Below are positions 32,276 through 35,780 of a stretch of 64,000 nt of DNA, in pieces (position 1 is the stretch's first letter; each line of letters starts with the position of its first letter). The notes below the pieces were generated by a model. It ran no database searches. It saw only the letters and a list, made by a program, of their open reading frames with translations, and was not told the DNA's origin. The DNA is from Marine Group III euryarchaeote CG-Bathy1 (GTDB lineage Archaea; Thermoplasmatota; Poseidoniia; MGIII; CG-Epi1): positions 129,804 through 193,803 of the forward strand of contig MIYU01000001.1 of assembly GCA_001875425.1 (NCBI GenBank), written 5' to 3'. The translations under genes and the position numbers were made by a program.

Positions 32276-33082
32276 CTAAATCAGTTTTGTTATTTCATTT
32301 GCTAAATTAGCAATTTCTTCAGGATTTAGTACTTCCCCTCTCAACTCCATAAATGGCAATTTATCCAGTTCAAGATTCTCAAATCTAGTTTTTAGTGCAT
32401 TTTTTAGAGTTTTTCTTCTATGGGTAAAAATCGCCCTGACTACTTCATCAAATATCTTTACATCTTTCACTTCATAGTTCGGCGCTTCTCTTTTTAGTTC
32501 AACAACTACAGAATGTACTCTCGGTTGAGGTAAGAACATGTTTCTACTTACTCTGAAAAGCTTTTTACATTTGACATGTACAGAAGCCATCACAGTCAAT
32601 CTTCCGTATTGTTTAGTTCCATGCTCGGCTGTCAATCTATTTGCAAATTCTTCTTGAAACATAATTACGGCTCTATCCCATTTTGTTTCAAATAAATGAA
32701 AAAGTAGAGGGGATGATATCGAATAAGGTATGTTAGAAACAATAACATCTATATCTGGAATATCAACTTTCATAATATCTCCTTCAATTATTTCAACATT
32801 CTCTCTCCTAAGTTTCTGGTTCAACACGGTAAATAGCCATTTATCCTTTTCAACAGCCACTAAACTTTTTCCCATTTGTGCCAATTTCTCTGTTAAAATT
32901 CCTCTTCCAGGCCCTATTTCTAAAATATCTTCGTCATCTTTTATCTCTGCTGCATCAACTATACGCTGTGCAATTTTCTCATCAACTAAAAAATTCTGGC
33001 CTAAGGCTTTTCTCCGTTTGTAGGATTGGTGGGCCGGGGCGGAATCGAACCGCCGATCTTCGCCTTGTAAGGGCGACGTCAT
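32276..33082 (-). CDS. rsmA: 16S rRNA (adenine-N6,N6)-dimethyltransferase KsgA/Dim1; start codon problematic
   Basis: 'ALGQNFLVDEKIAQRIV', 'EIGPGRGILT' (SAM motif) and 'SNIPYSISSP' are present. The only canonical in-frame start upstream of the SAM motif is the ATG at 33082, inside the tRNA-Val gene. Confidence 0.9.
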   Translation of the reverse strand: MTSPLQGEDRRFDSAPAHQSYKRRKALGQNFLVDEKIAQRIVDAAEIKDDEDILEIGPGRGILTEKLAQMGKSLVAVEKDKWLFTVLNQKLRRENVEIIEGDIMKVDIPDIDVIVSNIPYSISSPLLFHLFETKWDRAVIMFQEEFANRLTAEHGTKQYGRLTVMASVHVKCKKLFRVSRNMFLPQPRVHSVVVELKREAPNYEVKDVKIFDEVVRAIFTHRRKTLKNALKTRFENLELDKLPFMELRGEVLNPEEIANLANEITKLI

Positions 33083-33102
33083 AACCCCTAGACCACCGGC
33101 CC
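33027..33102 (-). tRNA. tRNA-Val (anticodon UAC), 76 nt, with genomically encoded CCA
   Basis: Hand-folded cloverleaf: acceptor GGGCCGG/CCGGCCC, anticodon stem TCGCC/GGCGA, loop CTTACAA, T arm GGCGG-TTCGATT-CCGCC, discriminator A plus CCA. No intron. Confidence 0.93.
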
Positions 33103-33192
33103 AATCTTAAGTTAACCCCTAAGTCTAGTTCTGTTCTGTATTTGTTATGGGCATAGTACCTATTAATATTACATCCGTTGATTTTTGGTTAA

Positions 33193-33200
33193 TTATTTAT
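33193..33200 (+). promoter_or_regulatory. candidate TATA box for pckA (would imply a leaderless mRNA)
   Basis: 'TTATTTAT' is centred about 26-27 nt upstream of the pckA ATG at 33223. Based on motif and spacing only. Confidence 0.3.
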
Positions 33201-33222
33201 CCCTGTTGCTAGTCCCACGTGC

Positions 33223-34785
33223 ATGGAGTTGCTGAATAATTTCGGTATACAACCAAAGAAAGTATATCATAACTTATCGCAAGCCCAATACAGGGATGAA
33301 GTTATCGATAGAGGTGAAGGTAGATTATCTTCTAACGGAACTGCCGTTGTGACTACTGGTATTTTTACGGGTCGTTCACCAAACGATAGATTTTTCGTAT
33401 TAAATTCAGATTCAGAACAGAAAATAGATTGGGGTGAGATAAACAAACCACTCCCTTCTGATTCATTCGATACACTTTTGGATTTAGTTAAAGATGAAAT
33501 GAATGATCAAGATTTATTTGTTTTTGATGGGTTTGCAGGTGCAGATGCAAGATATCGACTCCCAATTAGAATTGTTACAATGAAAGCGTGGCAGTCTCAT
33601 TTCTCCAATAATATGTTTATCCGTCCATCCAAAGAGGAACTTTCGTCTTTTAATCCAGAATTCACGGTGCTTAACGCATCTAGTGTTAACGTTTCTAACT
33701 GGTCTCAACTTTCTCTAAATTCAGAAATCTTCATAGTTGTAAATATTGAAAAAAAACTAGTTATAATTGGTGGTACAGAATATGGTGGCGAAATCAAAAA
33801 AAGTATTTTCTCAGTTTTGAATTATCTGCTTCCTAATGAGGGAGTTTTACCAATGCATTGTTCTGCAAATATCGGCTCCAATGAGGACACTGCGTTATTC
33901 TTCGGTCTCAGTGGAACTGGCAAAACTACACTCTCTACTGATTCTACAAGAAGATTGATTGGTGATGATGAACACGGTTGGTCTGATCAAGGCGTTTTCA
34001 ATTTTGAAGGAGGTTGCTATGCTAAAACTATCAATCTCGATCCGACAAAAGAACCTGAAATATACAATGCCATTCGTCCCGGGGCTTTATTGGAAAATGT
34101 AGTCATGGATAAAGATGGAAATATTGACTATAGTGATTCATCGATAACTGAGAATACCAGGGTCTCTTATCCTATTGATTATATAGATAATATCGAACCA
34201 TCTGAATGCGGAGGACATCCACGCAATGTTTTCTTCCTAACTGCTGATGCGTTCGGAGTTCTTCCTCCTATTTCTCAGCTAACTCCTGAAATGGCAATGT
34301 ATCATTTTCTTAGTGGTTACACAGCAAAAGTTGCAGGTACTGAACGGGGTATCGTAACTCCAACAGCTACCTTTTCTGCCTGTTTTGGAGCGCCATTTAT
34401 GCCTCAACATCCAACAGTTTACGCCAATTTACTAGGTGAAAAAATCGCCAAACATAATGCCAAAGTATGGCTAATCAATACCGGTTGGACAGGTGGGCCT
34501 TATGGTATAGGAAAGCGCATCGATCTCCCTTTAACTCGTAGAATGCTGAATGCAATATTATTGGGTGAGCTAGAGCATACTGAATTCGTCGCAGATCCTA
34601 TTTTTCAATTATTAGTTCCTAAATCTGTAGAAGGTATACCTAGCGATATTTTAGAACAACGAAACACTTGGGATGATGACATTGCCTATGATAATAAGGC
34701 CCATGAATTAGCTACTCTGTTTGTAAATAATTTTGAAAAATATCGAGATTACGGCGATTTCGAATCAGCCGGTCCGTTACTGTAA
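33223..34785 (+). CDS. pckA: phosphoenolpyruvate carboxykinase (ATP)
   Basis: Contains 'FFGLSGTGKTTLS' (kinase-1a P-loop), 'LIGDDEHGW' and 'NTGWTGG'. Confidence 0.95.
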   Translation: MELLNNFGIQPKKVYHNLSQAQYRDEVIDRGEGRLSSNGTAVVTTGIFTGRSPNDRFFVLNSDSEQKIDWGEINKPLPSDSFDTLLDLVKDEMNDQDLFVFDGFAGADARYRLPIRIVTMKAWQSHFSNNMFIRPSKEELSSFNPEFTVLNASSVNVSNWSQLSLNSEIFIVVNIEKKLVIIGGTEYGGEIKKSIFSVLNYLLPNEGVLPMHCSANIGSNEDTALFFGLSGTGKTTLSTDSTRRLIGDDEHGWSDQGVFNFEGGCYAKTINLDPTKEPEIYNAIRPGALLENVVMDKDGNIDYSDSSITENTRVSYPIDYIDNIEPSECGGHPRNVFFLTADAFGVLPPISQLTPEMAMYHFLSGYTAKVAGTERGIVTPTATFSACFGAPFMPQHPTVYANLLGEKIAKHNAKVWLINTGWTGGPYGIGKRIDLPLTRRMLNAILLGELEHTEFVADPIFQLLVPKSVEGIPSDILEQRNTWDDDIAYDNKAHELATLFVNNFEKYRDYGDFESAGPLL

Positions 34786-34802: not shown

Positions 34803-35780
34803 TTACAAGAATTCATTCACCATCTCTCTCTCTTTGGTAAGTTCATCATTCGTTCTTTCTAACGCTTCCTTTGCGAATGAATTATGTTCCATTCCTTTCA
34901 CAATTTCAAAATTACCTGAAGAAACAGTTCTTGTTGGCATTCCTGCCCAGACGCCCTTTGCAAAACCATATTCCCCTCTACTAACAGCCGCAATTGAATT
35001 TATTTTATCACTAGGTTTGTCCAGACCTTGAACATGATTTATCAGAGCATTAGCAGCCGATGCAGCACTGGATAGTCCTCTCGCTTTGATAATCTCAGCA
35101 CCACGTTGCCCAACTGCAGGAATAAATTCTTTCTGCATCCAGTTTTCATCTCCTATAATTTCTATTGCTGCTTTGTTCGATATTTTTGCATTCTCATAAT
35201 CGGGATACATAGTGGGACTGTGATTACCGTAAATCACTACATCACTCACTTCTGCAACGTCCACACCAGCCTTCTTGGCAAGCATCGCTTCAGCTCTATT
35301 TTGATCTAAACGAACCATAGCAGTGAAGCGTTCATCACCCAATCGATTACCTTGTGCTGCTGCAATCATACAATTAGTGTTACATGGATTTCCAACGACG
35401 ACAATTCTACAATTATCGGCAGCATTTTCATCTATTGATTTCCCTTGTCCTACAAAGATTCTTCCATTATCTCTTAATAGATCAGAGCGTTCCATTCCAG
35501 GCCCTCTAGGTTTACTCCCAACTAATAAACATAAATTAGTTCCAGCAAACGCTTCATCTGGATTTGATGAAGTAACAATTCCCTTTAGTAAAGGAAAAGC
35601 ACAATCTTCTAATTCCATTGCAACACCATTAAGTGCATCCATAGCAGGCGGTATCTCTAACAATTGTAAAATTACTGGCTGTTCTTTTCCAAACATTTCG
35701 CCAGTGGCTATTCTAGGCAATAAACTATATCCTATCTGTCCAGCAGCACCAGTAACTGCAATACGCATGGCTTCTTTCAT
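34803..35780 (-). CDS. mdh: malate dehydrogenase (NAD-dependent, LDH/MDH family)
   Basis: Contains '[16 protein letters not shown]', '[16 protein letters not shown]' and 'VVGNPCNTN'. Confidence 0.92.

Follow-up and report, generated by a model that had tools for sequence, protein, structure and literature searches.

In the Marine Group III family CG-Epi1, the reading frame of the 16S rRNA dimethyltransferase KsgA runs back into the gene for tRNA-Val(UAC) on the same strand, and we hold with high confidence that this fusion is real and conserved and that its translation very probably begins within the tRNA. Comparison of the loci, which is a comparison of sequences, establishes the fusion, the translation of the spacer between tRNA and KsgA core as judged from its codons, and A21 of the tRNA as the only shared start. 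In the window (the whole 64,000-nt stretch of DNA that was analysed), the overlap is laid out as follows.

33027–33102, minus strand: tRNA-Val(UAC) gene, 76 nt with the CCA encoded, called by ARAGORN as tRNA-Val(TAC).
32276–33082, minus strand: ksgA/rsmA coding sequence, 268 aa, 16S rRNA m6,2A1518/1519 dimethyltransferase, from the open reading frame and TIGR00755.
33080–33082, minus strand: ksgA start codon ATG, which is A21-U22-G23 of the tRNA, 26 codons before LGQ in every fused locus.
33027–33082, minus strand: doubly coded stretch of 56 nt in the sequence, tRNA nt 21–76 being KsgA residues 1–18 plus 2 nt of codon 19.
33005–33026, minus strand: 22-nt spacer encoding the KsgA N-terminal basic region SYKRRKA, of invariant length and with synonymous variation.
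32900–32920, minus strand: SAM-binding motif EIGPGRG, aa 55–61, from the sequence and open reading frame.

The KsgA frame is closed by a TAA nine codons 5' of the ATG, with no start codon in between; downstream, canonical starts next occur only past EIGPGRG, as a TTG (aa 67) and an ATG (aa 70). The sequence-only reading had placed the tRNA at 33102–33027 and the ATG at 33082–33080, listed the codons between CCA and LGQ, and argued that a start at the next Met, aa 70, would delete the SAM motif; ARAGORN and the open reading frame calls bear out this layout, the codon list agrees with the sequence, and aa 70 does lie after the motif at aa 55–61. A sequencing error at the junction, the objection raised with that reading, is excluded, since the junction recurs unchanged in another genome of the genus and on three metagenome contigs, and its spacing in 82 loci. 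The D-arm ATG itself is not special, being present in every tRNA-Val examined from these archaea. Judging from the aligned loci, what goes beyond chance is the fixed 22-nt spacer with synonymous-only change.

The tRNA has the features of a functional molecule, with cloverleaf, anticodon and CCA all intact in ARAGORN. Across three genera the fused tRNA-Val shows 0–4 differences, including a G-U wobble change, a conservation above that of Val-GAC and not above that of Ala-GGC. It is the only Val-UAC gene found in its own genome (79% complete) and in the fused relatives checked; the other Val hits checked in these incomplete genomes were GAC or CAC. RNase P RNA and an archaeal CCA-adding enzyme were found in the own genome. 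RNase Z was not found in this 79%-complete assembly, and RNase Z-like matches below the cut-off occurred in four relatives. Every credible ARAGORN tRNA gene in the own genome (G000) ends in an encoded CCA, despite the archaeal CCA-adding enzyme, and the only intron-bearing tRNA called there is a tRNA-Tyr(GTA) with a 42-nt intron (contig C12, 50250–50369).

KsgA scored 258.8 bits against TIGR00755, above the family cut-off of 171, and its basic region, motif X (LGQNF), SAM motif and NIPY (NxPY) motif are intact, in likeness to the KsgA/RsmA/Dim1 family. The difference lies in the first 18 residues, which a tRNA gene encodes and to which nothing in the solved homologues corresponds; the alignment with the best solved relative, M. 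jannaschii Dim1 (PDB 3grr), begins at residue 20. Keeping the motif set intact requires a start at or upstream of residue ~20. The N-terminal basic region of KsgA contributes to activity and motif X is critical (PMC11789486). The h45 GGAA target loop was found in the 16S rRNA of a relative, and its methylation by KsgA is predicted. Public gene calls give the protein four different lengths (268, 232, 202 and 199 aa, the 232-aa record beginning at aa 37 with a non-canonical codon); motif X or the SAM motif is missing from the short records. The KsgA proteins of the sister family (L031, L032) carry an internal insertion of ~20–35 residues near query position 132–138 and total ~290–300 aa.

The fusion was present in 37 of the 39 assessable CG-Epi1 genomes, the own genome included. 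KsgA matches were obtained in 39 of the 42 other genomes of the family: 34 begin at residue 1, three run into contig edges (two of these begin at residue 3, the other is truncated at residue 33), and two (G005 and G013) begin at residues 15–20. The fused proteins cover three genera, g1 (the own genus), g2 and g3, and are ~60–65% identical, while in the sister family and MGII ksgA has an ordinary ATG with no adjoining tRNA. The comparison of orthologous loci that the sequence-only reading had proposed thus finds tRNA adjacency, internal ATG and extension all kept in those 37 genomes.

The spacer from CCA to LGQ (motif X) is exactly 22 nt in all 82 fused loci, some of them redundant, and ksgA codon -8 overlaps the CCA. 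Most g2 loci carry an ATG at -1, 19 nt after the CCA, which is replaced by GCC, GCG, GCA or AGG (Ala/Arg) in g1, g3 and two g2 loci. Gene annotation would choose this ATG as the start. Upstream of this ATG, the six codons of the 27 distinct g2 spacers hold 16 extra codons and only 2 extra amino acids, with swaps among AGG, AGA and CGN for Arg; kinship inflates counts of spacer pairs and affects this distinct-allele count less. Permuting the spacer columns gave a mean of 12.1 extra amino acids and a value as low in 0 of 20,000 permutations, and the other frames gave 13–14. Because the spacer is under coding selection even upstream of the g2 ATG, translation starts further upstream; in most loci in-frame stops stand 35–44 codons upstream, shortly 5' of the tRNA, so the start lies in the tRNA, and no canonical start codon other than ATG21 is common to the loci there. 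The core of the sequence-only reading, that KsgA begins at the tRNA ATG with 18 tRNA-encoded residues, is strongly supported by this family-wide selection. An upstream exon joined to ksgA with the tRNA spliced out is ruled out, since no conserved coding sequence lies upstream.

As a control, tRNA-Ala(GGC) likewise precedes a gene throughout the family, with a variable spacer of 10–13 nt to the start ATG and a frame that is not maintained. As a second case of fusion it is ruled out, because the frame from its internal ATG is not conserved. This tRNA (G000 contig C19, 12203–12279, minus strand; loci L243–L256) lies 10–13 nt upstream of a conserved membrane-protein gene, and the ATG inside it shares the gene's frame only in g1 and at a single g2 locus, an ordinary tRNA-leader arrangement.

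Three promoter-like elements in the 5' flank of the tRNA bear on how such a start could be reached.

33106–33111, minus strand: CTTAAG, candidate TATA box of a putative leaderless ksgA promoter, at -29 from the ATG within the tRNA.
33161–33168, minus strand: TATTAATA, tentative pre-tRNA promoter, farther upstream than at other tRNAs and not firmly assigned.
33196–33201, plus strand: TTTATC, resembling a TATA box, at -27 from the start of the divergent pckA (33223), which illustrates leaderless promoter spacing in the same DNA.

CTTAAG (33111–33106) stands 9–4 nt upstream of the tRNA 5' end. An EM-trained TATA/BRE matrix gave a diffuse motif with 69% occupancy and little discrimination, ranking the site 3 of 33 tRNAs, and a fixed consensus calibrated on the own genome was therefore used instead; a sigma-70 promoter/terminator scan is unsuited to archaea and was uninformative. 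In the own genome, YTTAW occurs at -30 to -26 from the ATG of 69 of 496 genes (13.9%), compared to 3–6% in other windows. The genes carrying it have fewer Shine-Dalgarno (SD) motifs (16% vs 39%), and its modal position is -29. Among the 33 tRNAs of this genome, tRNA-Val alone has the motif at the -29 place. It was found there in none of the 21 unfused tRNA-Val genes examined, 12 of which carry it at -29 to -35 from G1, as their own promoter. In the GC-rich g3 (61–68% GC), whose upstream flanks otherwise cannot be aligned with those of g1, [CT]TTATC stands at -29 in all fused loci, against a background of 0.0007 per position. A TATA box at leaderless distance was thus found at -29 in g1 and g3, which are only two lineages and share common ancestry, and mostly not in g2, where strict YTTAW at -30 to -27 occurs in 6 of 36 upstream haplotypes and YTTAC in 8 more. 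Some g2 subclades have nothing TATA-like upstream in these 36 haplotypes, yet their spacers are under coding selection. Outside the fusion, the ksgA ATG is preceded at -27 by CTTAAG or CTTAAA in the sister family and by TTTATC in the two unfused g3 genomes; given these leaderless-type promoters, ksgA looks natively leaderless in the order. The PEP carboxykinase (pckA-like) gene at 33223–34785 (plus strand) is divergent from the tRNA and convergent with a malate dehydrogenase gene at 34803–35780 (minus strand), and the synteny pckA-tRNA-ksgA holds in g3.

We think it rather likely that the ksgA mRNA is a nested leaderless transcript that cannot fold as a tRNA. One stretch of DNA would then give two RNAs, a pre-tRNA and a leaderless ksgA mRNA. 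An upstream promoter would yield the pre-tRNA, which RNase P and 3' processing would mature and whose 3' trailer holds no start codon in the own genus. The mRNA would be driven by CTTAAG, with its 5' end at, or a few nt before, tRNA A21; leaderless archaeal mRNAs begin 0–5 nt before the AUG (PMC4983044). When folded, an RNA from A21 formed the anticodon and T hairpins without an acceptor stem; that the hairpins lie close to the AUG counts against this reading. Lacking nt 1–20, such an RNA would have no acceptor or D stem and so should escape tRNA processing; by established substrate rules, RNA without an acceptor stem should escape both RNase P and RNase Z. Expression of ksgA would be low through promoter occlusion. 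The fusion would have arisen once, in the family ancestor, when the tRNA gene ended up immediately downstream of the leaderless promoter of ksgA and the AUG already present in the tRNA D-arm took over from the old ksgA start. The placement of the TATA box in g1 and g3 is read directly from the DNA, and we infer the transcription start, the escape from processing, the low expression and the origin. For the own genome, a separate leaderless mRNA from about tRNA nt 21 is the likeliest reading and the best fit, one that was absent from the options offered by the sequence-only reading.

The main rival is translation of KsgA from an unprocessed or only 5'-processed tRNA-mRNA co-transcript, which we regard as possible and hold only tentatively. 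The 30S subunit would bind tRNA nt 6–13 as a Shine-Dalgarno sequence and start at A21 before the cloverleaf folds, so that each transcript becomes either tRNA or mRNA, through the following element.

33090–33097, minus strand: SD-like GGTGGTCT, tRNA nt 6–13, which complements the family anti-SD, lies ~6 nt too far from the ATG and bears on the co-transcript only.

No T-tract follows the CCA, and tRNA nt 1–13 pair with the anti-SD (read from the 16S rRNA of a relative, G003) at -13.8 kcal/mol, above 99% of gene starts and the strongest of 33 tRNAs. The absence of the -29 box in some g2 subclades also speaks for a co-transcript, which may be the main route in that genus, as does the binding of an archaeal tRNA-Val 5' fragment to 30S subunits, although as an inhibitor (PMC11009984). 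However, the GGAGG-equivalent lies 13 nt from the start, against a mode of 7, and every fold hides the SD within the acceptor stem. The SD-like G6 also occurs in the unfused tRNA of the sister family, so this element predates the fusion and is not an adaptation; adaptation of the D-loop or SD after fusion is likewise ruled out, since AGGGG and G6 occur in unfused tRNA-Val. A co-transcript also leaves the -29 TATA box of g1 and g3 unexplained. The suggestion of the sequence-only reading that KsgA is made from a co-transcript, with expression and tRNA maturation mutually exclusive, thus survives as a live rival and is not the best fit for the own genome. Both routes, nested transcript and co-transcript, may operate in proportions differing by genus. 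It is conceivable, and on balance unlikely, that the overlap is regulatory, either through competition between the tRNA promoter and the nested ksgA promoter or between ribosome loading and tRNA folding or processing on one co-transcript. If so, the output of KsgA, a 30S maturation factor, would be tied to tRNA transcription or processing, and the tRNA would act as the translation-initiation region of a housekeeping mRNA.

A leaderless mRNA could also arise by endonucleolytic cutting of the pre-tRNA in the D-loop just before A21. This would need no second promoter or TATA box and would cover g2, and archaeal tRNA fragments are known (PMC3544259); we consider it improbable, as no enzyme or site was identified, the -29 box is again left unexplained, and the modelled Haloferax Val fragment comprises residues 1–26, so that cut falls after the AUG. 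We give slightly less weight still to a start downstream of the tRNA on a 3'-processing product, at a non-canonical codon or at the g2 ATG at -1. Most g2 loci do offer that ATG, and one public record (P0003) begins the protein at aa 37, but all seven codons upstream of ATG -1 evolve as coding sequence, the ATG is replaced in the loci noted above, a start there removes the basic region, and a start at aa 37 removes the critical motif X (PMC11789486). In g1 and most g3 loci there is no start between the tRNA and the SAM motif, as a tRNA-punctuated co-transcript would have. The non-canonical start on an RNase Z product that the sequence-only reading had allowed for finds no support, as every spacer codon varies synonymously and no near-cognate start is conserved; the g2 ATG at -1 may be at most a minor second start. 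A ksgA pseudogene or an assembly error at the junction has only the odd layout in its favour and deserves practically no credence: frame and motifs are intact in 39 of 42 family genomes, and junction geometry is identical in 82 loci under purifying selection, so the relatives' junctions and the spacer selection refute it.

Two genomes, G013 and G005, have lost the fusion. G013 (L147) keeps the g3 upstream flank and the 5' half of the fused tRNA, of which the 3' half is altered and mispairing; ~150 nt of other DNA, a different 77-nt tRNA-Val(TAC) on the opposite strand and then ksgA with a new ATG (MSHSSPRRRKALG) follow. The replacement cassette is shared by G005, where AT-rich DNA lies beyond it. 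In the KsgA tree both unfused proteins sit among fused g3 proteins, with a weak root within g3. The loss looks derived, because of the leftover tRNA in L147 more than the weakly rooted tree. Both genomes show that the 18 tRNA-derived residues are dispensable; each has nonetheless kept a tRNA-Val(UAC) as well as a ksgA start located 5' of the basic region. The insertions at the fused tRNA-Val (L147:2383–2790 in G013 and L148:3243–4200 in G005) are a near-identical cassette in two species, with, in G013, the mispairing chimeric remnant of the tRNA. Its other parts are an inverted replacement tRNA-Val(TAC) under a promoter of its own, and a new ATG and promoter for ksgA. It resembles a mobile element that targets tRNA genes, or else a repair cassette acquired by transfer; no integrase was identified.

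Co-transcripts of tRNA and mRNA are known from the E. coli thrU-tufB operon and from mitochondrial tRNA punctuation. They resemble the present locus in having a tRNA directly upstream of a coding sequence with no terminator, and the tRNA-Ala(GGC) locus of this family is of that type; in those systems, however, the start codon is 3' of the tRNA and the mRNA is released by processing, whereas here processing would sever the start codon. Plant dicistronic tRNA-mRNA transcripts are also known (10.1101/2020.04.13.039131). Leaderless mRNAs and internal starts in archaea (H. volcanii dRNA-seq, PMC4983044; GeneMarkS-2 group D, PMC6028130) share the TATA box at a fixed distance before the AUG and the independence from an SD, and the same TATA-AUG spacing is seen in other genes of the own genome; the difference is that the putative start site and the AUG lie inside a same-strand tRNA gene, with the TATA box in its 5' flank. 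The split tRNA-Asp of Aeropyrum pernix (PMC3218864) likewise has a second same-strand TATA/BRE inside a supposed single tRNA gene, but the product of its nested promoter is a tRNA half destined for trans-splicing rather than an mRNA. The 5' part of tRNA-Val in the Val-tRF of Haloferax volcanii contacts the 30S subunit near the mRNA channel (PMC3544259, PMC5711459, PMC11009984) as a non-coding inhibitor in trans, whereas the tRNA-Val sequence here would be a coding start in cis. Our literature search, mostly without subscription papers, found no report of a start codon plus 56 coding bases inside a same-strand prokaryotic tRNA gene, and none on the CG-Epi1 tRNA-Val/ksgA locus.

Leaderless mRNAs, internal transcription starts and tRNA-mRNA co-transcripts are already known, and KsgA and tRNA-Val are ordinary members of their families; the ordinary machinery invoked limits the distance from known biology. 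The locus would nevertheless mean that, across a family, roughly three quarters of a tRNA gene doubles as same-strand coding sequence for a ribosome-biogenesis enzyme that is nearly universal, and it breaks the annotation rule that tRNA genes and coding sequences do not overlap. It also suggests how a gene can acquire a new start codon from a motif conserved in a tRNA, here the A21-U22-G23 that every tRNA-Val examined carries.
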